Counted from the stretch's first letter, positions 76 through 61,789 are shown. The stretch: DNA of 64,000 nt from Bacteroides sp. (GCA_020861095.1 JAJBTC010000022.1:68854-132853), one strand, 5' to 3'. The notes: generated from the letters alone by a model not told the origin. A program made the numbers and translations.

Positions 76-119
76 TTGAAGTGCACCCGAAAAGTTAGAC
101 ATAATTTGATTAGATTTTT

Positions 120-638
120 ATGTCAAGAGCCAGAATTCAATTTAGTATGAGTGATCGTAAAAATGCTGTTCTTTTAGTGGTTAATGATGGTTACTCTTAC
201 CGTCATGTAAGTAATCTTTTAGGTATAAGCGAGGTTATGGTTCGTCGTTGGACGGGTTGTTACCGTATTCATGGTACTTCTGGTCTCTCTTATAAGAGTG
301 CCCGGCACTGTAGTATCAGTTATAAGTGTACTGTCGTTGAGGATATATTAAATAATCATTTATCTTTGCATCAGGCCTCTTTCAAATATCTTCTTTCCCC
401 TTCTTCCATAAGGAATTGGCTTAAGAGCTATGAGAAGTTTGGCAAAGAATCTTTTAGTAAAAAACGTATCCGTGGTATGAAAAAAAGTAAATCCTGCTGC
501 CCTGAGCCTTTACCGGAGAGATCCTATCAGGGGCTTTTAAAAGAGAACCTTCGTCTTCGTGCTGAGAATGATTACTTAAAAAAATTGGCAGCCTTAATCC
601 GGCAGGAAGAGAAAAAGAGAACTGGAAAGTCCAGGTGA
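120..638 (+). CDS. IS3-family transposase OrfA (HTH DNA-binding part)
   Basis: 172-aa ORF. It has an HTH-like N-terminus and a C-terminal leucine-zipper-like segment (LRLRAENDYLKKLAALI) typical of IS3 OrfA. It overlaps orfB. Confidence 0.9.
   Translation: MSRARIQFSMSDRKNAVLLVVNDGYSYRHVSNLLGISEVMVRRWTGCYRIHGTSGLSYKSARHCSISYKCTVVEDILNNHLSLHQASFKYLLSPSSIRNWLKSYEKFGKESFSKKRIRGMKKSKSCCPEPLPERSYQGLLKENLRLRAENDYLKKLAALIRQEEKKRTGKSR
578..584 (+). other. Candidate programmed -1 ribosomal frameshift site (A7 slippery run) producing the OrfAB transposase
   Basis: tta aaa aaa ttg lies in the orfA frame. The -1 frame is open from here into orfB (..KIGSLNPAGREKENWKVQVIEGLRH..). A6G/A7 motifs are the standard IS3 frameshift signal. 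Confidence 0.6.
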
Positions 639-1480
639 TCGAAGGATTAAGGCATACCTATTCTCTCTCTCTTCTTTTAGATGTGAGTGGTATAGCCCGA
701 AGTACTTTCTATTATTATCGCCAAAAGATGGGTAGTAGTGATAAATATAAGCAGGAAAGAAAATTGGTCCATCGTATTTTCCATGCCCATAAGGGCCGGT
801 ATGGTTATCGTAGGATTACACTTTGCTTAAGAGAGCAGGGTTATTTGCTTAACCATAAAACGGTTTTACGCCTGATGAATCAAGAAGGGTTAAAGTCCAC
901 TGTAAGACCTAAAAAATATCGTTTTTATAAAACACAAGTCCATACAGACATTGGTAATCTTCTGCACAGGGATTTTACGGCTAAGCAAGCAAATCAGAAA
1001 TGGACAACGGATGTAACGGAGTTTGCTCTAAAGGGAAATAAACTTTTTCTCTCTCCCATAATGGACCTGTATAACGGAGAAATCATCAGTTATACTATCG
1101 GAAGACAAATGAATTTATCTCTGATTATAGAAATGATGGAAAAGGCTTTTAAGAAGATACCTCCACACACTGGATTAATCCTGCATTCTGACCAGGGACA
1201 TTTATATAAGCATCCATATTATGTGGATAGGATAAAGAAAAAGGGGATCATACAGAGTATGTCAGCAAAAGGAAACCCCTATGATAATGCTCCCATAGAG
1301 AGTTTCTTTGCATTGCTCAAAACTGAACTGTTTTATTTGCAGAAGTTTAGTTCAATAAAGCAACTCGAAGATAAAATACATAATTATATAAAGTATTATA
1401 ACCAGAAAAGAATTAAAGTAAAATTAAATGGATTGAGTCCGGTAAAATACCGAACTCAAAATAATAATAGAGTAGAATAA
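635..1480 (+). CDS. IS3-family transposase OrfB (DDE/RNase-H-fold integrase core)
   Basis: 281-aa ORF in the -1 frame relative to orfA. Motifs WTTDVTEF, HSDQGHLY and NPYDNAPIESFFALLKTE match the rve catalytic core. Confidence 0.9.
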   Translation: MIEGLRHTYSLSLLLDVSGIARSTFYYYRQKMGSSDKYKQERKLVHRIFHAHKGRYGYRRITLCLREQGYLLNHKTVLRLMNQEGLKSTVRPKKYRFYKTQVHTDIGNLLHRDFTAKQANQKWTTDVTEFALKGNKLFLSPIMDLYNGEIISYTIGRQMNLSLIIEMMEKAFKKIPPHTGLILHSDQGHLYKHPYYVDRIKKKGIIQSMSAKGNPYDNAPIESFFALLKTELFYLQKFSSIKQLEDKIHNYIKYYNQKRIKVKLNGLSPVKYRTQNNNRVE

Positions 1481-1870
1481 ACGTCCAACTTTTGGGGGGC
1501 ACATCAATTTTTGCGTCTCTACATGGTCCGTTATTAACTGTATCGACCACTGGTTATCACACAAAAAACAGAAAATCTGGCTACAAACAGGCCTACATGA
1601 AAGAAACAAGCAGAATCCTGACAGTTACTCAGAAAGATCAAAAAATTATCCTGGTGGGAAAAATATGTATCTCTTCGGACAATCCGTGTTTATAAATTTG
1701 TAATTTTGCCGGAGCACCGCCCTGTGGAGCCGTTGTTCTACAAAAGATAGATTATTATTTAAATACATCCGGAAATTGTTTCTTCTTTACATCCGACATC
1801 GGTCCAGAAGCTATCTGCGCATATTAGCGGCACTCGGGATACTGCGATTGATCTTTCTGATAGGTCTGCT

Positions 1871-3394: not shown

Positions 3395-3444
3395 CTTATC
3401 TCTTATTCTGATCCGACCTGCCTGTCCGGGTGTAGCACACAAAG

Positions 3445-3492
3445 AGACCACCGCCCTTCCTGCTCCCAAAGAGCAGTACCGGACGGTGGTCT
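3445..3492. terminator. Hairpin between the convergent ABC ATPase and metK genes
   Basis: Outer 9-bp stem agaccaccg/cggtggtct with an inner stem ctgctc/gagcag. There is no clear U-tract on either strand. Confidence 0.35.
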
Positions 3493-3519
3493 ATAAATAA
3501 TAGCGTAAAGCTATGCTGA

Positions 3520-4812
3520 TTACAATCCGAAAGCCTTCTTCAGTGTGTCCACATAATCCAGCTTTTCCCAGGTAAAGAGTTCCACATCCATCACCCTGGC
3601 CGGCTGATAGCGGGACTTAAACTGCTTAGTCACCACCTGAGGCTCGCGCCCCATGTGTCCATACGCAGCTGTTTCGCTGTAGATCGGGAAGCGGAGTTTC
3701 AACCGCTCTTCAATCGCTCTGGGACGCAGGTCGAATATCTCTGCCAGCTTGCAGGCAATCTCTCCATCGGAGATCTGCACGTGGCTGCGACCGTGGGTAT
3801 TTACATAGATACTCACCGGCTGTGCCACGCCAATGGCATACGAAAGCTGCACCAGTACCTCGTCGGCCACTCCGGCGGCCACTAAGTTCTTAGCGATGTG
3901 CCGTGCCGCGTAGGCCGCGCTACGGTCTACTTTGCTGGGGTCTTTTCCGGAGAAGGCTCCCCCTCCGTGTGCCCCTTTACCACCGTAGGTATCTACAATG
4001 ATCTTACGTCCGGTGAGTCCGGTATCTCCATGCGGACCGCCGATCACGAACTTACCGGTAGGGTTGACGTGGTAGATAATATCTTCGTTGAACAGTGCCA
4101 GTACTTCGGGCCGGCTGATCGAAGCGATCACACGCGGCATCAGCTTTTCGATCACATCCTGGCGGATCACAGCTACCATCTCCGCATCGGCCTGCGCCTG
4201 TGCTTCCGGGGTCTGATCGGCAGGTGGGATGAAGTCGTCGTGCTGGGTAGATACCACAATGGTATCGATACGTACCGGCTTGCCGTTATCGTCGTACTCA
4301 ATCGTTACCTGGCTCTTGGAATCGGGACGGAGGTAAGTCATGATCTTACCGTCGCGACGGATATCTGCCAGTACGGCAAGGATCTTGTGCGACAAATCGA
4401 GAGACAGTGGCATGTAGTTCTCTGTCTCGTTGGTAGCGTAGCCAAACATCATTCCCTGGTCGCCCGCGCCCTGATCCATCGGATCTTCGCGCTCTACGCC
4501 GCGGTTGATGTCGGCACTCTGCTCGTGAATGGCAGAGAATACGCCGCAGGAGTTTCCTTCGAACATATACTCTCCTTTGGTGTAACCAATGCGGTTGATG
4601 ACTGTACGCGCTACCTCCTGAAGGTCTACATACGCTTCTGATTTCACTTCTCCAGCCAGTACTACCTGTCCGGTAGTTACCAGGGTTTCGCAGGCTACTT
4701 TGGAATTGGGATCAAATGCCAGCAATTCGTCAAGTACAGCGTCCGATATCTGATCGGCCACTTTGTCGGGGTGCCCTTCGGACACCGATTCGGATGTGAA
4801 TAAATATCCCAT
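3520..4812 (-). CDS. metK: S-adenosylmethionine synthetase
   Basis: 430 aa. Motifs [24 protein letters not shown] and [19 protein letters not shown]. Confidence 0.97.
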
Positions 4813-4991
4813 TTTAAATCAGGATTGAAATGAATAATAAAGTTGTTTGTGTCTGTGGAAAAGCACGCAGAGTAGAGTTGCAAGCGGATAGAATGTCTTT
4901 TAGCATTTTTTTTCGTGGTTGCAAGCTACTCAAATCTTTCCACATCATCCGGCTGTCTTTAGGTCAGGACGGCCTATCGGTTGCAAAGGTA
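4813..4991 (-). promoter_or_regulatory. metK promoter (-7 box TAccTTTG, complement of 4984-4991) and a structured leader of about 170 nt; possible SAM-responsive element
   Basis: The minus strand reads tacctttgcaacc.... There are three copies of the self-complementary hexamer TTGCAA. A 12-bp interrupted stem GAGTAG-C-TTGCAA / TTGCAA-CT-CTACTC encloses an A8 tract. Confidence 0.35.
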
Positions 4992-5664: not shown

Positions 5665-8600
5665 ATGAGACTATCATTCCGCACTTTTATCAGCAGCATT
5701 GTTGCTGTTTCGTTATCTAAGCCTGTGTATATAGGAGTAGGGCTACTCCTGACCTCCCTCTGTGTATCGGCACAAACCCGGCTGACGGGTCGCGTTTTCG
5801 ATCAGACCTCCCGGGAGGCTATTATCGGCGCTACAGTATTGGAAAGCAGTAGCGGCAGCGGCACCGTTACAGATCCGGAAGGCCAGTTCTCTCTGCAGAT
5901 CCACTCTTTCCCGGCTACACTCACCGTCAGCTATCTGGGCTACAGGTCACAGGAGGTGATCGTCCGGACACCTGAGGAAGCATTTATCGGCCTGGAAGAG
6001 GAGATCAACAGCATCCATGAAGTGGTTGTGGTGGGCTATGGCACCCAACGGAGAAAGGAACTCACCGGGTCCGTATCTTCCATTCCCAAAGCTACCTTGG
6101 AACAGCCGGCCACCTCCATCAATGAACTGTTGGGAGGAAGTGTGGCCGGACTGAATGTAACACAGACTTCCGGACAGCCTGGCGCAGGCTCTGCTATCCG
6201 CATCCGTGGCGGCAATTCGATCTATGCCAGCAACGAACCTTTGTATGTAATCGATGGCTTTATCTATTTCAGTGAGAAAAATGCTACACAGGCAGGCGTA
6301 GGGGGGATAGACAGTAGTCTTGACCCATTGGCGGCAATCAATCCCGCAGACATCGAATCCATAGAGGTGTTGAAAGATGTATCGGCCAAGGCCATCTACG
6401 GCTCACGCGGAGCCAACGGAGTGATCCTTGTTACCACCAAAAAGGGGCAACGAGGCGGCAATACAGTACGTTATCAATATACCATAGGAGTAGACCGATC
6501 GGCCAAGAAACTCAACCTGATGACTGCCAGAGAGTGGCTGGCGGTGCAGAAGGAGTACTTCAATGACAAACCCGGTCAATACTACTCCCAGACAGAACTT
6601 GCCGCATTTGACAAGGGAACGGATTGACAAAACGCGGTATTGCAGACCGGCATCTCACAAACCCATGAATTGTCTGTCAGCGGAGGAGATGACAAAACAC
6701 GCTATATGATCTCCGGAAATTATACGGACCAGAAAGGGATTATCCTGAATTCGGGATTCAAACGCTTCAGCGGACGATTGAACATAGACCGGGAACTCCA
6801 CAGCAACCTGAAAGCGGGAGTTACCGCCAACATAAACCGCAGTACGCAGGACGCGCTGACCACCTTCGAGGGGAGCAATTACAACGATTCTCCTTATTCA
6901 CATGGTATTGCCGATTCGCTGACCTACGCGTTGTATATGCCGCCTGTACTCTCTATCTACAACGCGGATGGTGGCTACAACTATACCAATCCTTTCGAAT
7001 ACAGCTACCTGAGCTATTATGGCCAGGCAGCGAACCCGGTATCGGATCTGAAAAATAGCATCGGGCAGACGGTGAGTACTTCGTTGCTGGGCAACTTCTA
7101 TGCCGAATATATCATTGCCGAGGGATTGAAGGCCCGGATCAATGCCGGTGCGCATATAGATTACATTACTCAGAACTATTTCGCTCCCCCTTACACAGCT
7201 CTGGGACTCAATCAGGATATCCGTGGGATGGGAGCCATCGGCAACAGACGTACAGATGTGACTCAGACGGAATACCTGCTTACGTATGCCCGACAGTTGC
7301 ACCCGATCCATTTCATCGATCTGCTGGCAGGATATACCTATCAGCGTACGAAAACAAATTTCTCTGTCAGCAAAGCCAATCATCTGGAGTCGTTCGATAA
7401 CTTGGCTACAGGGAATGAACTTCCTTCCATATCGCGCAAACAGGAGGCTTCTTTCCGCTCGTTCTTAGGAAGGGCCAACTATACGCTACTGGAACGATAC
7501 AACCTGACAGCCACTTTCCGTGCCGACAAATCTTCCCGCTTTGCCAAAGGACACGAATGGGGATATTTCCCTTCTGTGGGGTTGTCGTGGAACGTGGACA
7601 ACGAATCTTTTCTGCAACCGCTATCGCCTGCGCTGAGTACCCTGAAATTCCGGCTGACCTACGGAAAGGCGGGCAATCAGGAAATAGATTTTGATGAGTA
7701 CGAACAGTATTTCAACACCGGCAGATACAACGGTGCTCCGGCCTACGACATGTCTACCCTGGGCAATTCGGATCTGAAATGGGAAACCACCACCGAATAC
7801 AATGCCGGGATCGACGCGGGTTTCCTGAACGACCGGCTGACACTCACAGCGGATATCTATTACAAGGAGACTAAAGATCTGCTGCTGCGGGTACCGGCGC
7901 CGCTGGGCTCGGGAACCAACGAAAAACAGATCACTAACATCGGAAGCGTAACCAATAAGGGATTCGAGTTTGCGGTGAATGCCCGGCTGATAGAAGGCAG
8001 GGAATTCCTGTGGACGGCTTCGGCCAACATGGCCCGTAACCTCAACCGCATCAAAGACCTGGGTGAGTACAATGAACTCACCATTGGCAACGATCAGGAG
8101 CAGATACTGCGCGTGGGCGAAGCGGTAGGTTCTTTCTATGGGTACCGTTTTCTGGGAGTGGTACAAAGCGATGAGGATGTATCGCAACTGCCGACCATCG
8201 GAAACCGTACCCCGCAACCGGGAGATGCCAAATTAGCGGATGTGAGCGGCGCGGAGGGAATTCCCGACGGGAAAATATCACCGGAATACGATCGGGTGGT
8301 CCTGGGAAGTATACAACCCGATTTCACCTACGGATTCTCTTCTACACTGACCTATAAGAACCTGGATTTTTACATCCTTTTTCAGGGTTCGAAAGGCAAT
8401 GAGGTATACAATCTGTTGCGACGCTATCTGGAACGGCCGAATGATTCTTATAATATGTCGGCCGTACTGCTCGACAGCTGGACGGAGAGCCATCCGTCCA
8501 ACACCATCCCGCACCTCAACAGCACACGTCCTACCGAACTGGACAGCCGTTATGTAGAAGACGCTTCGTTCCTGAAGCTGCGCAACATTACGCTGGGATA

Positions 8601-8778
8601 TACTATTCCGGTGAAGGTGAATACTGCTTCGGTAAAGCTACGGTTCTTTGCTTCGGCCCGCAACCTGTTTACACTTACGAAATACAAAGGATACGATCCG
8701 GAGGTAGCGGAAGGCATAGACCTGGGCATATATCCTTCTTCAAAAAGTTTCCTGGCAGGGGCCAGCCTTACTTTTTAA
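5665..8778 (+). pseudogene. susC: SusC-family TonB-dependent outer-membrane transporter interrupted by an in-frame TGA at 6625-6627
   Basis: ORFs 5665-6627 and 6640-8778 are in the same frame. The N-terminus has a carboxypeptidase-regulatory-like domain and a plug (VVVVGYGTQRRKELTGSV). The stop falls in GTD[TGA]QNAVLQTGISQTHELSVSGG, where SusC proteins carry a conserved TDWQ. The C-terminal beta-barrel ends in ..LTF. Confidence 0.9.
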
Positions 8779-10560: not shown

Positions 10561-10620
10561 TTGTGTATGTTTTATGGATTGGAGAGCTTCCCTCTGTTTG
10601 TTTTTCAGTGGATTGTCTTT

Positions 10621-11040
10621 AGATTTACGATTTGACGATTTACGATGTACGATTGAAATTACATTTTGTAAACCCCCATACATTACATGTTAGATGCAAA
10701 CATACGAAACGCAAAGAAATTTACCATGTACTGAACCAACGGTTGACGAAGTCACCCAACGGTCAGCAAAGGGATTTACAATTTACGATTGAAATTACAG
10801 AAAGAATATATTTGTAAATTCCTATGCGTACCATTTTATAGGCAAACATACGAGACGCAAAGAGATTTATGATTTGACGAACCAACGGTTGACGAAGTCC
10901 ATCGAAGATCGGCGTAGCCAACCAGGCGATCAGTAAAGTTAATTACGATTTAAATTGCAGAAAGAATATGTTTGTAAATTTCTAAGCGTAGAATTATTTA
11001 TATGCAAACATATAAGACGCACGTTATGCGCCTCTACATA
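10621..11040. repeat. Tandem array of three degenerate units (about 135-160 bp) built from J, H-half and G modules
   Basis: Unit starts (t)tacgatt(g/t)aaatt(a/g)ca are at about 10648, 10783 and 10942. Each unit contains gcaaacatacgaRacgcaaag (H half-site). Units 1 and 2 contain gaaccaacggttgacgaagtc (G). The array ends in a degenerate H palindrome at 11013-11038. Confidence 0.8.
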
Positions 11041-11152
11041 GATACAACCACCCTATATATATACCTGATAAAGTTCATCTATATAACCGGGATATCTGTT
11101 CCATAGAATTATATAATGCAGGAAAAACATACACCAGCATTGGGCCTGTATC

Positions 11153-11882
11153 GCAGAGACGCCCACCATGCAGTGGTGTCCGAAATAAATCGTTAGCATT
11201 TGAGATCCTATGCTTTATTTCAAATAGTTACATTTGATTTTCTACCCGAAAGATTTCAAACTATTACTTTTACGGAAACTATGCAAATGACACTCATGTA
11301 CCCTGATTTCCTCTGAAAGCCTGAAGGGCTTTAATGTGAATAGCCCCCAGTGAAGCGCATAAGGGCCTTGCCCGTAACGAAGCGACTGGGGGTATATCTG
11401 AGGTATTTACAGTCAACCCCAAAGTGGGTTGAATAGAGAAAAACTCCATTCTACACAGCAAGAGTACGATTTTACATCGTTTTATTCAGGATAGAAGCAT
11501 TCAACCCACTTTGGGGTTGAAGACACAGGACGGATCCATACCCCCAGTCGCTCCGCTATGCTACGCTTCACTGGGGGTTATGCACAGTAAAGCCCTTCAG
11601 GCTTTCAGAGTGGAATAAGTATCCTTTGAGATCCATTTCCACCCCCAGTCGCTTCGTTACGGGCAAGGCCCTTACTGCGCTTCACTGGGGGTTATTAGCT
11701 TTGCTGACCGTTGGTTGACTGCGTCGACCGCTGGTTCACAGTAAAGCCACTTCGGGCTTTCAGAGAGGATTATTCACAGGAAAACCCTCCGGGCTTTCAG
11801 AGTGGATGAGTGACAGTTGGATAGTTGCGTAAATATTAAATTCTTTTTCCGGACACTATTGAACACCGTGCGTCTCCACAGG
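11153..11882 (+). repeat. Large mosaic palindromic element, copy 1 (about 730 bp, ORF-free)
   Basis: The ends are gagacgc..gtgtccg / ccggacac..gtgcgtctc. The element aligns block by block with 40251-40868 and with the reverse complement of 61045-61655. It contains S, P, N and G hairpin modules around a conserved core at about 11432-11500. Confidence 0.85.
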
Positions 11883-21189: not shown

Positions 21190-21232
21190 GGGTAATTTTC
21201 TATTTTAATCGGTTTACTAATTATTGGATTCC

Positions 21233-21354
21233 TGTAGAGACGCATACTTGCGTCTCCGCATATGTCTCCGCAGTGTATATATCCATTCATCTATCATTAT
21301 TATATGATGTGTGGTTCCATCCGGCACGCTGAGACGCAAGTATGCGTCTCTACA
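21233..21354. repeat. Small H-spacer-H element (two gagacgc..gcgtctc palindromes flanking about 74 bp)
   Basis: tgtagagacgcatacttgcgtctc (21233-21256) and gagacgcaagtatgcgtctctaca (21331-21354). The spacer end ggttccatccggcacgct is the reverse complement of the spacer start of the 25074 element. Confidence 0.8.
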
Positions 21355-21366
21355 ATGGATCACTGC

Positions 21367-25004: not shown

Positions 25005-25073
25005 GGTAGTATGAAATATAGGTGCATTTACAAATTAGTTATATTGATTTTGAAACGGAGGACAGGGATTTCC

Positions 25074-25214
25074 TGTAGAGACGCATATTTGCGTCTCAGC
25101 GTGCCGAATGGGATAACCTGCCAAATGGAAATATATTCCACAGGCACACATGGCTACAAAGAATCATCTCAGGAAAACATACTTACCGCGAAGACGCAAA
25201 TATGCGTCTCTACA
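25074..25214. repeat. Small H-spacer-H element, in opposite orientation to 21233-21354
   Basis: tgtagagacgcatatttgcgtctc (25074-25097) and gaagacgcaaatatgcgtctctaca (25190-25214). The spacer begins agcgtgccgaatgggataacc. Confidence 0.8.
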
Positions 25215-25249
25215 AGAAACCACTGTCCCAGGTAATCGTTCTATTTGTT

Positions 25250-36352: not shown

Positions 36353-36509
36353 ATTTACGAATGGACGATTTACGATTTACGATTTAAATTACATTTTACC
36401 CATTTATAAATCAGACATACATATACGTCTTTACATGCTTTCATAATGGTTAAATCAATATTCTCTTTTGTATTCTCTATCGTAAATCGTAAATCGTCCA
36501 TTCGTAAAT
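36353..36509. repeat. J-type inverted-repeat element: 31-bp perfect IRs separated by 95 bp
   Basis: atttacgaatggacgatttacgatttacgat (36353-36383) is the exact reverse complement of 36479-36509. The arms contain ACGATTT heptad repeats. The interior holds a degenerate H unit, cagacatacatatacgtctttaca. Confidence 0.85.
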
Positions 36510-37873
36510 CAAATGGTTTTCCCTTTGAGGGTGGCTGAACTCGCTTCAAGAATCTCGACCTCTACAAAGTCGCCTACTTTATATCCCTGTCGGTCAAAAA
36601 CCACCACTTTATTCTGCGGGGTACGTCCGAACAGCTGATCCCGCGAACGTTTGGATACACCTTCCACTAAAACCTCATAGGTTTTTCCGATACTACGCTG
36701 ATTGGATTCGGCAGACAACCGGTTCTGTAAGGCTATGATCTCATTGAGCCGTGCTACTTTTACTTCTTCCGGAACATTATCTTCCAGATGTTTGGAAGCA
36801 TAGGTACCGGGACGTTCGGAGTATTTGAACATAAACGCGGCATCGAAGCCACACGCCTCCATCAGAGAGAGGGAAAGCTGATGATCCTCTTCGGTTTCGG
36901 AATGGAAACCGGAAAATATATCGGTACTGAGTCCGCAATCCGGGATCATCCGGCGTATGGCTGCCACTCTGTCCAGATACCACTCCCGTGTATACCTGCG
37001 GTTCATCAGTTTCAGGATACGTGAACTACCACTCTGCACAGGCAGATGAATGTGGTTGCATATATTCGGGGTGTCGGCAATTACCTGCAACGTCTCATCA
37101 CTCATATCTTTCGGATGTGAAGTGGTGAACCGGACACGCATGCCGGGCACATGAGCGGCCACCCGGCGCAGCAGTTCCGGAAAATTGATCCGGCTTCCGT
37201 CGGGCTGTTCCAACAGGTAAGAGTTTACATTCTGCCCCAGCAGGGTTACCTCTTTATAGCCTTTTTGCTGCAGGTCGGATACCTCATTGAGTATACTTTC
37301 CAGGTCACGGCTCCGTTCGCGCCCGCGGGTGTAAGGCACAATACAATAGGTACAGAAATTGTTGCATCCGCGCATGATAGAGACAAAGCCGGATATATGG
37401 TTGCCACAGATACGTGAAGGGATCACATCACGGTAAGTTTCCGTAGCAGAGAGCTGCACGTCTATCGCCGTTTCACCCGTCTCCACGGCAGCGATCAGTT
37501 CGGGCAGACTCAGATAGGCATCCGGCCCTACCACCAGATCCACATGGTGATTTTTGATCAGATCCTCTTTCACCCGCTCTGCCATACAACCCAGCACTCC
37601 CACGATCAGCCCTTTTCTTTTCTTTCTCATCGCGTGGAAATAATCGAGCCGATTGAATATCTTCTGTTCGGCATTCTCCCGGATGGAGCAGGTGTTCATA
37701 AACACAGCATCCGCCTCTTCCAGCTGTTCGGTCACCGAATAACCAGCCATTTGCATCACTGAAGCCACCACCTCACTGTCTGCCACATTCATCTGACAGC
37801 CATAGGTCTCCATAAATAGTTTTTTGTCTGCGACAGTTGCAGATTTAAAGTCTGCTCCCGCTACCTTGTTCAT
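36509..37873 (-). CDS. miaB: tRNA-2-methylthio-N6-dimethylallyladenosine synthase
   Basis: 454 aa. UPF0004 N-terminal domain (YGCQMNVADSE), radical-SAM motif CNNFCTYCIVPYTRGRERS and a TRAM domain. Confidence 0.96.
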   Translation of the reverse strand: MNKVAGADFKSATVADKKLFMETYGCQMNVADSEVVASVMQMAGYSVTEQLEEADAVFMNTCSIRENAEQKIFNRLDYFHAMRKKRKGLIVGVLGCMAERVKEDLIKNHHVDLVVGPDAYLSLPELIAAVETGETAIDVQLSATETYRDVIPSRICGNHISGFVSIMRGCNNFCTYCIVPYTRGRERSRDLESILNEVSDLQQKGYKEVTLLGQNVNSYLLEQPDGSRINFPELLRRVAAHVPGMRVRFTTSHPKDMSDETLQVIADTPNICNHIHLPVQSGSSRILKLMNRRYTREWYLDRVAAIRRMIPDCGLSTDIFSGFHSETEEDHQLSLSLMEACGFDAAFMFKYSERPGTYASKHLEDNVPEEVKVARLNEIIALQNRLSAESNQRSIGKTYEVLVEGVSKRSRDQLFGRTPQNKVVVFDRQGYKVGDFVEVEILEASSATLKGKTI

Positions 37874-40179: not shown

Positions 40180-40250
40180 TATAGGCTTGTAAAAAAGAGA
40201 AAATATTTACGATTGGAAAGACAGATATTCCAACATTTATTAGATCCACC

Positions 40251-40868
40251 TGTAGAGACACACGGCATGCAGTGATGTCTGGAATAAATCGTTAGCATTT
40301 GAAATCCTATGCTTTATATCAAATAGTTACATTTGATTTTCTACCCGGAAGATTTCAAACTATTACTTTTCCGGAAGCTATCCAAATGACACTCATGTAC
40401 TCTGATTTCCTTTGATTTCCTCTGAAAGCCCGGAGGGCTTTACTATGAACCAACGGTCGACGCAGTCAACCAACGGTCAGCGAAGCTAATAACCCCCAGT
40501 GAAGCGCAGTAAGGGCAGAGCCCGTAACGAAGCGACTGGGGGTATATCTGAGGCATCTACAGTAAACCCCAAAGTGGGTTGAATAGAGAAAAACTCCATT
40601 CTACAAAGCATGAGTACGATTTTACCTCGTTTTATACCTCAGAAAATCATTCAACCCACTTCAGGGTTGAAGAGACTGATGTGATCCATACCCCCAGTCG
40701 CTCCGCTATGCTACGCTTCACTGGGGGTTATTCACATTAAAGCCTCCGGGTTTTCAGAGAGTTATGCACATGAAAGTCCTCGGGGCTTTCAGAGTGGATG
40801 AGTGACAGTTGGATAGTTCCGTAAATATTAACATAGTTTTCCGAACACTACTGCACGGCATGTGTCTC
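40251..40868 (+). repeat. Large mosaic palindromic element, copy 2 (about 618 bp, ORF-free)
   Basis: The ends are tgtagagacacacggcatgcagtgatgtctgg / ccgaacactactgcacggcatgtgtctc. It is collinear with copy 1 but has fewer S and P modules, and its G module (40447-40481) is on the left arm. Confidence 0.85.
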
Positions 40869-40998
40869 GGCAAAACAAGTCCAATAAAGAGATGAATTGA
40901 ATAAAGTATTCAACCTTTTTAGGAAATTATCCATCCTACTGATGATTATACAATCTATATTTTAATTGTATTGGATACGTATGTTGGATATGCCCCGC

Positions 40999-41024
40999 GG
41001 AGACGCACGCCGTGCGTCTCTACA
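40999..41024. repeat. Canonical H palindrome
   Basis: ggagacgcacgccgtgcgtctctaca: 9-bp stem gagacgcac/gtgcgtctc with a 3-nt loop. Confidence 0.75.
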
Positions 41025-41117
41025 AGTGGATGCCGACAGTAACAAATCCATTTTTCCCAACATTCAAAAATGAGTACATGCTACTTCCCAGATTCAGGGA
41101 TGCAACAAAGACTGGTC

Positions 41118-42703: not shown

Positions 42704-42737
42704 TCGTAATTGACTTTGTCGACCGTTGGTTCGTAAA

Positions 42738-44105
42738 TTAGTAAATCGTAAATTGAGAGAGTGCCTCTTTAAATATCTCTCCTACCGTGGGATGGGCTAC
42801 CACTACTTTTCGCCAGGCTTCTACAGTGAGACCCAGTTCTATCGCCATACCGGCCTGCGCGATGATCTCTGAAGCCGGATTACCCAGCACATGGGCTCCC
42901 AGGATCTTTCCATCCGTACCTATCAACAGTTTACAGAACCCGTTCACTCCTTCGTTCTCCGCCACGAAACGACCGGAGTAACTCATAGGCAATTTTACCA
43001 GTTGATGTTCTATCCCTTCGGCCTGCAACATCTCTTCCGTAGCTCCTACCCCGGCAAACTCGGGTTGTGTATATACTACCCCCGGAATAGCACGGTAACT
43101 CATACAGTCCTGTTTATCCAGAATAGCATGTACGGCTACTTCCGCCTCCCGTACTGCCGTATGAGCCAGCAACGAATGTCCGTTCATATCTCCGCAGACA
43201 TAGATGTGTGGTTGTGAACTGCGCATCGTGGCATCTACGCGGATACGCCCCTGTCCGGTATGCGCCAGGTCGAGTACTTCTATTCCCAGCCCTGTGGTCA
43301 CCGGTACACGTCCCGCACTCACCAATAAACGGTCTGCTTCGAGTACAGTTTCTCCTTCGGATCCGCTTACCTCCATCCGGATACCTCCCTCTTCATGGGT
43401 CGCGGATACGGAAACCGCCCACGTCTGCAACCGGAATTCCACTCCCCGCCTGGCATATTCCTGACGCAAAAGTCCGGCGAGTTCCCGGTCCATACCACCG
43501 AGAATCTCGTTAAACATCTCTACTACAGTAACCTTCACACCCAACGCGTTGAAGTAGGCAGCAAACTCCATACCGATCACGCCTCCACCCAGCACCACGA
43601 TCGAAGCCGGTAGGGATTTTGCATCCAAAGCCTCCCGATGGGTCCAGTAAGATACCTGATCCAGTCCCCGCACCGAAGGAATGAAGGGTTCAGAGCCTGT
43701 ACACAGGATCAGGTTCTCAAACGTATATATCTGGTTGTTGCACACAAGGGTATGCGTATCGGTAAGGGTAGCCGCTCCCGTTACTACCTCTACCCCGCAC
43801 GCAGCAAGGCGGGCTTTGATACCCAGTACCAGTTTGCGCACCACCCGGGTTTTGCGGGAAATGATCTTAGGCAGGTCGAAACAGACCTCCCGGGCAGTGA
43901 TCCCGTATCCGGAAGCATGCCGGACAGCATCGTAGGTCTTGGCTGCGTACAAGAGGGTTTTGGTAGGGATACATCCTTCGTTGAGGCATACGCCACCCAG
44001 GTTGTTTTTCTCAAAAAGGACTACAGATAGTCCGGCTCCGGCAGCTGCCTCTGCCGCGGTATATCCGGCCGGACCGGCACCGATAATAGCTATTTGGTAA
44101 TTCAT
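42738..44105 (-). CDS. lpdA: Dihydrolipoyl dehydrogenase
   Basis: 455 aa. Motifs GAGPAGY, redox-active GGVCLNEGCIPTK and C-terminal HAHPTVGE. Confidence 0.93.
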   Translation of the reverse strand: MNYQIAIIGAGPAGYTAAEAAAGAGLSVVLFEKNNLGGVCLNEGCIPTKTLLYAAKTYDAVRHASGYGITAREVCFDLPKIISRKTRVVRKLVLGIKARLAACGVEVVTGAATLTDTHTLVCNNQIYTFENLILCTGSEPFIPSVRGLDQVSYWTHREALDAKSLPASIVVLGGGVIGMEFAAYFNALGVKVTVVEMFNEILGGMDRELAGLLRQEYARRGVEFRLQTWAVSVSATHEEGGIRMEVSGSEGETVLEADRLLVSAGRVPVTTGLGIEVLDLAHTGQGRIRVDATMRSSQPHIYVCGDMNGHSLLAHTAVREAEVAVHAILDKQDCMSYRAIPGVVYTQPEFAGVGATEEMLQAEGIEHQLVKLPMSYSGRFVAENEGVNGFCKLLIGTDGKILGAHVLGNPASEIIAQAGMAIELGLTVEAWRKVVVAHPTVGEIFKEALSQFTIY

Positions 44106-59425: not shown

Positions 59426-59549
59426 ATTTACGATGGAACGATTTACGAAGTACAATTGATATCAGATAGGATTATCAGCAAAAGATATAACTTTTATATA
59501 TTATACCATGTAACTTCAATCGTACATTGTAAATCGTTAAATCGTAAAT
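59425..59549. repeat. J-type inverted-repeat element, second locus (imperfect arms)
   Basis: aatttacgatggaacgatttacgaagtacaattga (59425-59459) pairs with tcaatcgtacattgtaaatcgttaaatcgtaaat (59516-59549). It fills the gap between the convergent SulP and flavin reductase genes. Confidence 0.7.
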
Positions 59550-61044: not shown

Positions 61045-61655
61045 TGTAGAGACGCACGGCGTGCAGTAGTGTCCGGAAAAATAATTTAAGATTTACGGAA
61101 CTATCCAACTGTCACTCATCCACTCTGAAAGCCCGGAGAGCTTTACTGTGACTAACTTTCTCTGAAAGCCTGAAGTGACTTTACGGTACATAACTCTCTC
61201 TGAAAGCCCGAAGTGGCTTTACTGTGCATAACCCCCAGTGAAGCGAAGCATAGCGGAGCGACTGGGGGTAGGGATCTGTCCTGTGTCTTCAACCCCCAAG
61301 TGGGTTGAATGATTCTATCCTGAATAAAACGAGGTGAAATCGTGTTCATGCTACGTAGAATGGAGTTTTTGTATATTCAACCCACTTCGGGGTTGAAGAG
61401 AGGTGTATGCGTGACTACCCCCAGTCGCTTCGTTACGGGCAAGGCCCTTCACTGCGCTTCACTGGGGATTATTCACAGTAAACCCTCCGGGTTTTCAGAG
61501 GAAATCAGAGTACATGAGTGTCATTTGGATAGCTTCCGGAAAAGTAACAGCTTGAAATCTTCCGAGTAAAAAAATGGATATAAATAATTGAAATAAAACT
61601 TGTTATATCAAATGTTAACGATTTATTCCGGACACAAGTGCACGCCGTGCATCTC
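61045..61655 (-). repeat. Large mosaic palindromic element, copy 3 (about 611 bp), inverted relative to copies 1 and 2
   Basis: The ends tgtagagacgcacggcgtgcagtagtgtccgg and ccggacacaagtgcacgccgtgcatctc match as IRs at 25 of 28 positions. The reverse complement aligns with copies 1 and 2 through the core and the 5' region. Confidence 0.85.
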
Positions 61656-61717: not shown

Positions 61718-61789
61718 GAGACGCACACTCCTGGGTTGGACCTGCACCGCGGAGACGCAAATATGGAGACGCAAATATGCGTCTCTACA
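61718..61789. repeat. Cluster of H half-sites ending in a complete H palindrome
   Basis: ggagacgcaca (61718), ggagacgcaaatat (61751) and ggagacgcaaatatgcgtctctaca (61765-61789). The spacer 61656-61717 resembles the spacer of the 25074 element (ccgaatgg..aatggaaata). Confidence 0.7.

Follow-up and report, generated by a model that had tools for sequence, protein, structure and literature searches.

A large palindromic intergenic element in a Bacteroides genome: a probable miniature inverted-repeat transposable element lodged in a REP-type palindrome

Anatomy of the three copies

The stretch of DNA analysed here, hereafter the window, comprises 64,000 nucleotides (nt) from Bacteroides sp. (GCA_020861095.1 JAJBTC010000022.1:68854-132853), and its intergenic DNA contains a large palindromic unit at 11153-11882 which an earlier note, made from the sequence alone, had described as one of three copies of a family that could be placed in no known class. 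The three copies, at 11153-11882 (+), 40251-40868 (+) and 61045-61655 (-), are borne out by reading of the regions, by a repeat search and by a three-way alignment, while the family itself proved assignable to known classes. With moderate confidence, the unit is read here as non-coding mobile DNA, namely a nested MITE, or miniature inverted-repeat transposable element, of three layers: a target palindrome termed H, a transposon-like shell and, within the shell, an inverted doublet of hairpins built from modules termed S, P and N.

The copies are collinear along their full length, with a mean column identity of 76% and long blocks that are 80–94% identical. As had been claimed, they share no conserved open reading frame (ORF); stop-free stretches reach at most 65–81 amino acids (aa) and similarity is seen in all frames. 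The modules S, P, N and a further one, G, lie where they had been placed, to within 1–2 nt, and the P arms are indeed near-exact reverse complements, 11360-11393 being 100% complementary to 11641-11674. The positions of P are correct, but the stem of 14–15 base pairs (bp) once attributed to it is actually one of 8 bp (CCCCCAGT/ACTGGGGG) around a variable interior. The features of the three copies are as follows.

11153-11882 (+): copy 1, whole H-bounded unit, with H stems at 11156-11163 and 11869-11876
11164-11168 and 11864-11868: 5-nt direct repeats of copy 1, CACCA and CACCG
11169-11863 (+): putative MITE proper of copy 1, with TG...(C)A ends and 17-nt terminal inverted repeats at 11169-11185 and 11847-11863
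11186-11310 (+): left shell of copy 1, including about 90 nt without a counterpart in the right arm, with the TAcaTTTG box at 11229-11236 among them
About 11273-11298, pairing with about 11805-11825: subterminal inverted repeat of copy 1
11311-11431 (+): left arm of the inner doublet of copy 1, with S at 11311-11338, long-form P at 11344-11392 and N at 11414-11431
11432-11500 (+): core of copy 1, about 70 nt, non-palindromic
11502-11610 (-): right arm of the inner doublet of copy 1, with N' at 11502-11519, short-form P' at 11541-11577 and S' at 11583-11610
11611-11802 (-): extra material of copy 1, with a second long P' at 11642-11691, G' at 11699-11738, S' at 11738-11765 and S' at 11775-11802
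40251-40868 (+): copy 2, with H stems at 40255-40262 and 40861-40868 and the putative MITE proper at 40268-40855
40263-40267 and 40856-40860: direct repeat CGGCA of copy 2
About 40446-40485: G module between S and P in copy 2
61045-61655 (-): copy 3, inverted, with H stems at 61049-61056 and 61648-61655 and the putative MITE proper at 61062-61642
61057-61061 and 61643-61647: flanking 5-mers of copy 3, CGGCG and CGCCG, with the partner H at 61766-61785

The number of modules varies between copies, in agreement with the earlier description: a further P+G block is present in copy 1 (11611-11737), and in copy 2 G separates S from P. Complementarity of 94% links the segment 11641-11748 of copy 1 with 40436-40543, where G and P stand in the left arm of copy 2. 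Beyond the window, homologues of the 600-bp unit are carried by two loci (L007 and L008) of one metagenome-assembled genome (MAG), Bacteroides sp. MI.10_1, where the stretch running from P to P' stands inverted with respect to the shell. The sequence of the core is confined to this family and the MI.10_1 MAG, and has the opposite orientation in the latter. Recombination between long inverted arms would yield differences of this kind, and we infer that origin for the extra P+G block, the G between S and P and the inverted centre in MI.10_1.

The G module (ACCAACGGTCGA...) interrupts the S-P linker at one and the same point in copy 2 (40446-40485) and in L009:575-620, a locus of the unrelated MAG Bacteroides sp. 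CTOTU47028, which suggests either that a small insert enters at a specific site or that the arm exists in an alternative form. G is also part of a composite unit of 146–160 bp, made up of ATTTACGATTT repeats, TTTGTAAA...CAAACATA and the G module, of which about three stand in tandem at 10620-11050, just upstream of copy 1; parts of this composite unit recur at 36353-36513, 42709-42747 and 59426-59549, and on a contig of a relative (L027).

Variation in module content among the copies is also what would be expected of accretion in the manner of a bacterial interspersed mosaic element (BIME), in which H, S, P, N and G gathered at intergenic hot spots and the block was copied by recombination or segmental duplication, with no transposition of the unit. 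G standing alone at 10732, 10878 and 42709, tandem S-P arrays in another genome and the centre inverted relative to the shell in MI.10_1 point the same way. Such an origin is nevertheless considered improbable, because the three copies, L007 and L008 form one collinear architecture of about 600 bp that ends at the same position in H, the flanks are unrelated single-copy DNA, and the P hairpin is confined to the unit within the window.

The H palindrome and the shell lodged in it

The unit had been described as bounded by degenerate H palindromes, and these are a feature of the window at large, its 8-mer GAGACGCA occurring 19 times against 1.6 expected, a twelve-fold over-representation. H consists of a GTAG foot, an AGACGCA stem, a loop of 4–5 nt and then TGCGTCTC, that is GTAG-AGACGCA-loop-TGCGTCTC, and has an asymmetric tail (...C-RGC-GTGCCGAATGG). 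The 5' foot, GTAG or GTGG, is present on most H palindromes, and none was identified on the S-P-N arms. Six H palindromes of the window are unoccupied, including two inverted doublets, and copies 2 and 3 each occupy one member of an H doublet; the partner of copy 2 is an unoccupied H at 41000-41020 with the loop CGCCG. H is a repetitive extragenic palindrome (REP)-type genomic palindrome, present alone or as an inverted doublet of the REPIN type (REP doublets forming hairpins), and was not found described in the literature searched. The unoccupied doublets, together with an insertion sequence (IS) of the window discussed below, are as follows.

21225-21365: unoccupied H doublet with both inverted members GTAG-footed, at 21237-21256 and 21331-21350
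25060-25228: unoccupied H doublet with members at 25078-25097 and 25191-25210
77-1506 (+): insertion sequence of the IS3 family, whose orfA spans 120-638 and orfB 635-1480

The left half-stem and loop of H also form tandem arrays with a 14-nt period (GGAGACGCAAnTAT, 2–4 units) at 24-76 and 61752-61779. Both directly adjoin an H palindrome, one of them at the IS3 insertion, and they may have arisen by slippage or by repeated rounds of insertion and excision.

Between the half-stems of H lies an element that begins TGCAGT..., finishes ...ACTGCA and has a 5-mer on each side. Its 17-nt terminal inverted repeat (TIR), TGCAGTAGTGTCCGGAA, has six matches in the whole window at no more than 3 mismatches, against 0.12 expected, and all six are the ends of the three copies; the same TIR is present in L007 and L008. 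What lies between the ends, the putative MITE proper, is non-coding and measures 580–695 bp in the three copies. The H stems that flank the 5-mers are complementary at 7–8 of 8 positions. Deleting the element with one 5-mer restores an H with a 5-nt loop, and the unoccupied H at 41000-41020 has exactly this form. The earlier note had judged the unit less MITE-like than BIME-like, a view that does not agree with the TG...CA ends, the 17-nt TIR and the 5-nt flanking direct repeats. Compared position by position, the 5-mers read as follows.

Copy 2: CGGCA / CGGCA, matching at 5/5 positions as a direct repeat and 2/5 as an inverted one
Copy 1: CACCA / CACCG, matching at 4/5 positions as a direct repeat and 1/5 as an inverted one
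Copy 3: CGGCG / CGCCG, matching at 4/5 positions as a direct repeat and 5/5 as an inverted one

Three observations argue that H is the target and no part of the element. When the asymmetric tail of H is compared with the equally asymmetric element across the window, L007 and L008, four cases have one orientation and two the other. Copies 2 and 3, as said, lie in members of H doublets. Finally, the IS3-family element, with the ends TGAAGTGC...GCACATCA, is bounded alike, by GAGACGCA-AAAT and ATTTT-TGCGTCTC-TACA, which places it in another H loop. The IS3 element was also tried as a parent of the MITE and rejected, the similarity of the ends being no higher than in shuffled controls. In addition, a palindrome-associated transposable element (PATE) derived from IS200/IS605, which would have unlike subterminal hairpins on the left and right and neither TIR nor duplication, does not fit, as the ends of the unit are mutual inverted repeats and direct repeats are present.

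The same half-stems could alternatively be the element's own ends, in which case the unit would be a giant REPIN: two H-type REPs facing each other across a long spacer in inverted arrangement and mobilised in single-stranded form by a REP-associated tyrosine transposase (RAYT) specific to H, with the solo H palindromes as products of central deletion. H does bear the 5' GTAG foot typical of REPs, its doublets resemble REPINs, and subclass 2.4 of Quentin et al. is reported to be abundant in Bacteroidetes (Quentin et al., 2018, PMC6006769). Furthermore, the flanking 5-mers can be read as inverted repeats at copy 3 and at the IS3 site, and a direct repeat is absent at L007. The 5-mers of copies 1 and 2, however, are direct and not inverted, the asymmetric tail of H stands in either orientation relative to the element, no RAYT associated with H was seen, and an unrelated IS3 element between the same half-stems fits H as a target. 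A giant REPIN is for these reasons held to be unlikely, and H is treated in what follows as the site into which a MITE probably inserted.

The inner doublet and its Y1 relatives

The centre of each copy is composed of S-P-N, the 70-nt core and N'-P'-S', with the arms inverted. A scan with the P-hairpin pattern over one genome per species gave ten loci in four Bacteroidales MAGs. At one of them (L011, Bacteroidia bacterium PG1894_26) the inverted S-P-N arms enclose an ORF of 132 aa which is a Y1 transposase, Y1_Tnp (PF01797, Pfam E = 7e-21), and its homologues at L017, L018-20, L021, L022, L023 and L024 are likewise flanked by inverted arms. The Y1 gene thus has inverted hairpin arms in 7/7 independent Bacteroidales loci examined, where it encodes proteins of 132–147 aa. 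Upstream of the gene the order is S, a linker AAT(A/G)TGAATAA, P and usually N, and downstream it is the mirror image; the arms in the window follow the same order and have the 8-bp P stem in common with those of the Y1 loci.

Across genomes the stems of these hairpins change on both sides. S is found with AAGCCC/GGGCTT, AATCC/GGATT, AGTCC/GGACT and AATACC/GGTATT, and P with CCCCCAGT, CCCCCAAT and CCCCGCAT, each accompanied by its matching partner. Since pairing is kept while both sides are altered, the hairpins are conserved as structures. For this comparison the stems were extracted from each sequence, in place of an alignment of the arms by MAFFT, in which the hairpins S and N did not line up and covariation analysis with RNAalifold therefore recovered the P stem alone.

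The hairpins also occur without a gene. The PG1894_26 MAG has gene-less tandem S-P arrays (L016) alongside the gene-bearing L011, and Bacteroides sp. CTOTU47028 (L014, L015) has doublets of about 220 bp in the order S-P-N-N'-P'-S'. Elsewhere the S-P-N arms form short doublets and tandem S-P arrays, while the P hairpin in the window lies only inside the three copies. Because the S-P-N hairpins flank a Y1 gene in other genomes, the centre of the window copies is considered a gene-less, REPIN-like derivative. The resemblance to BIME and REP mosaics noted earlier is correct to the extent that S, P and N flank Y1_Tnp in 7/7 loci and the H ends are of REP type; it fails for the unit as a whole, which shows MITE hallmarks.

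As regards the protein, it exceeds the cut-off of the NCBIfam IS200/IS605 model (63.4 bits against 55) and fails that of the NCBIfam RAYT model REP_Tyr_transpos (21.7 bits against 80), and its best matches in the PDB are TnpA proteins of IS200/IS605. The HuH motif is DHIH and the Y motif YIK.QQ.HH. By motifs and length only, the protein appears to fit subclass 1.2 of TnpA_Y1 (Quentin et al., 2018).

Two further observations concern the Y1 loci. In three Bacteroidia MAGs (L018:2400-2960 and 3440-3960) an outward-facing P'-S'-S-P doublet lies on each side of the Y1 gene, embedded in long C-rich/G-rich repeats of short period (ctctcccatgcatcgcaccccct...), an arrangement unlike the S-P-N order elsewhere. 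At L011, L017, L021 and L023 the gene is preceded by TA(C/T)CTTTG or TAACTTTG; the core of the window copies was tried as a relic of such a promoter and rejected, as it has no such box on either strand.

The palindromy of the unit is far beyond chance: the predicted single-stranded DNA fold of copy 2 has -124 kcal/mol, whereas shuffled sequences give -60 +/- 4.5 (z = -14). A fold of such stability (z = -14), local hairpin pairing that survives two-sided changes, a Bacteroides-type -7 box in copies 1 and 2 and a centre found in both orientations in different genomes could all be expected of a large structured non-coding RNA or of an invertible regulatory DNA switch. Both are nevertheless judged highly unlikely, and the earlier proposal of an RNA is not supported. 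Rfam gave no match at either the gathering or the E-value threshold: at the former, over the whole window, only a SAM-II riboswitch elsewhere was found and the unit itself was unmatched, while at E <= 10 over the region there were only chance matches to microRNA hairpins, on the N-core-N' hairpin. Mismatches between the arms comprise 28 G.T, 40 A.C and 120 non-wobble pairs, with no consistent G.U strand bias; in the four copies tested this amounts to about 190 mismatches against 624 Watson-Crick pairs. The TAcaTTTG box, confirmed in copies 1 and 2 and absent from copy 3 as had been stated, is also missing from the homologues in L007 and L008, and a promoter with the TAnnTTTG box was accordingly rejected as unconserved. 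Copies face both ways relative to the adjoining genes. In addition, the inversion of the centre is observed between species only and not within one, and the association with Y1 genes accounts for the local hairpins.

The riboswitch is a SAM-II (long-loop) element at 4890-4949 (-), scoring 61 bits and located upstream of metK (3520-4812, -), a known family in an ordinary arrangement.

Distribution, standing of the nested reading and known systems

The composite of shell and doublet seems restricted to a narrow lineage. A 20-mer invariant in the three copies had no matches in viral, GTDB-representative and JGI metagenome collections, and a pattern of the left arm, conserved in all five known copies, had none in metagenomes, from which the apparent restriction follows. 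BLAST of copy 1 against plasmid and phage records returned no match, the P pattern had no matches in viral contigs, and two matches to the TIR pattern in viral contigs were dismissed as chance, both lying inside coding DNA. On L007 a second 600-bp unit starts 46 bp past the first (L007:4088-4141), faces the other way and is cut short by the end of the 340-kb contig; each of these copies occupies one member of a single H doublet.

The genes that neighbour the copies encode SusC/SusD, alginate lyases and similar proteins, and the MetK of the window is 86% identical to homologues of Bacteroides and Mediterranea. For the carboxypeptidase adjoining copy 2, a 93% identical homologue exists on the contigs of a relative, with synteny kept. 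There (L027, L028 and L029; flanks about 88% identical) the site is empty, 16 bp standing opposite a block of the window, listed here.

40200-41091 (892 bp): block absent from the relative, made up of copy 2 and the H that it splits, then a spacer, the partner H (41000-41020) and short stretches of flanking DNA

This block is an insertion in the lineage of the window or a deletion in that of the relative, in whose 12 kb the H and P motifs are both absent. Copies of the 8-mer CCAACATT stand to either side of this block, at 40230-40237 and 41057-41064, and the relative has a single tcAACATTc; the pair, which does not adjoin the inverted ends, may be a duplication from the arrival of the H doublet. 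A SusC-like TonB-dependent receptor at 5665-8778 is split in the window into ORFs of 320 and 712 aa, is split as well in a separate, independent contig from Logan for this species (L001:772-3885), and is a single gene of 1036 aa in the relative (L005:5087-8197); the split is probably a genuine frameshift or pseudogene.

Taken together, these results would be accommodated by a nested MITE. In a first layer, H, a REP-type palindrome present alone or as a REPIN-type inverted doublet, would serve as the target. A non-autonomous MITE with TIRs of 17–20 bp would form the second, having entered the loop of H and duplicated its 5 nt, as a DDE transposase with recognition of REP hairpins would be expected to do, in the manner of IS1397 and ISKpn1 in enterobacteria. 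The third layer, the S-P-N / core / N'-P'-S' doublet, would be a gene-less passenger inside the MITE. A DDE enzyme would accordingly move the shell, and the presumed substrate of the Y1 enzyme is the single-stranded form of the S-P-N hairpins. More tentatively, and with less than even confidence, the small IS200-like Y1 transposases of Bacteroidales could run a REPIN-type system of their own, with S, P and N as its unit and gene-less doublets spread over several lineages of Bacteroidales; in the present lineage such a doublet would have been captured by a MITE that targets the loop of a second REP, of GTAG type.

Several points weigh against the nested reading. A transposase gene with ends matching those of the MITE was found neither in the window, whose only IS is the IS3 element, nor in scans of public collections, and the 64-kb window holds no Y1 gene. 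L007, the sole complete copy beyond the window, has no matching repeat, its left flank reading CGGTG and its right flank TATT, the IS3 copy shows no clean direct repeat (AAAT vs ATTTT), and the 5-mers of copy 3 agree with an inverted repeat (5/5) no less than with a direct one (4/5). Moreover, the 5-mers are all alike (CGGCG-like) and could therefore be carried by the element instead of being a duplicated target. The empty site of the relative lacks the entire H doublet and so does not isolate the entry of the MITE into the H loop, and no orthologous site with an intact H and no MITE was found. The number of complete copies from which inferences are drawn is three in the window and one outside. 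It is on account of the mismatch at L007, the unclean IS3 site, the likeness of the 5-mers and the dissimilarity of the IS3 ends that confidence in a nested MITE is kept at a moderate level.

The nested MITE, if correct, explains a class of large ORF-free intergenic palindromes of Bacteroidaceae that break short-read assemblies; Logan contigs of the same species do stop at or near these repeats. It also extends the use of REP-type palindromes as targets of transposable elements beyond Proteobacteria, to a member of the Bacteroidaceae. Y1 genes that fit a subclass described as REP-less have conserved, co-varying hairpins and gene-less derivatives, which offers a concrete substrate for the biochemistry of the enzyme. 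More generally, a bacterial intergenic palindrome that has a strong predicted fold and compensatory changes is not necessarily an RNA gene. Were the capture of a Y1 doublet by a REP-targeting MITE true, one selfish repeat would travel as the passenger of another.

The kinds of component are already known, namely the REP-type palindrome, the loop-targeting MITE and the Y1-associated hairpin doublet. What is new is the combination of the layers, together with the evidence for cognate hairpins and gene-less derivatives of Y1 enzymes that fit a group described as lacking REPs.

The closest comparison for the inner doublet is the REPIN/RAYT system or "REPtron", in which inverted REP doublets accompany a single-copy gene for a Y1 transposase that has those REPs on its own flanks (Bertels and Rainey, 2011, PMC3116915; Ton-Hoang et al., 2012, PMC3333891). 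S-P-N / N'-P'-S' is likewise an inverted hairpin doublet, the same hairpins flank a Y1 (HUH) gene, gene-less doublets are dispersed in intergenic DNA, and the stems co-vary between genomes. Each arm here, however, is made up of three distinct hairpins over about 110 nt, where a REP is one hairpin of 20–40 nt. The S-P-N arms have no identified GTAG foot, the Y1 protein is IS200-like and not RAYT-like, and the doublet is seen in this window nowhere but inside a larger element, as its payload. With subclass 1.2 of TnpA_Y1 the protein shares its length of 132–147 aa, the DHIH motif, a YIK.QQ.HH that fits Y---Q--HH, its presence in Bacteroidetes and an apparently low copy number. That subclass is described as found mostly in Cyanobacteria and Bacteroidetes, at low copy, with no REPs and generally without the terminal hairpins of the IS200 type (Quentin et al., 2018), whereas long inverted hairpin arms are present at 7/7 loci here.

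Besides IS1397 and ISKpn1 (IS3 family), insertion into REP palindromes is known for members of four other IS families, and IS621 (IS110 family) is among the REP-targeting insertion sequences (Tobes and Pareja, 2006, PMC1525189). In the window both the MITE and the IS3-family element similarly lie between the stem halves of a REP-type palindrome; unlike those insertion sequences, the MITE is non-autonomous, and its host is one of the Bacteroidaceae and not a proteobacterium. The BrickBuilt MITE of Porphyromonas gingivalis (PMC4596501) is comparable in being small, non-coding and intergenic, with TIRs, short direct repeats, several copies and a payload of internal repeats. From BrickBuilt and other bacterial MITEs the present element differs in its Y1-associated doublet payload, its almost wholly palindromic nature and an insertion specific to REP loops. 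Lastly, the unit resembles enterobacterial BIMEs as a mosaic of palindromic units (PUs) in alternating orientation and variable number, but it has defined, transposon-like ends, is collinear across copies and two genomes, and is composed of modules unrelated in sequence to PU/REP units.

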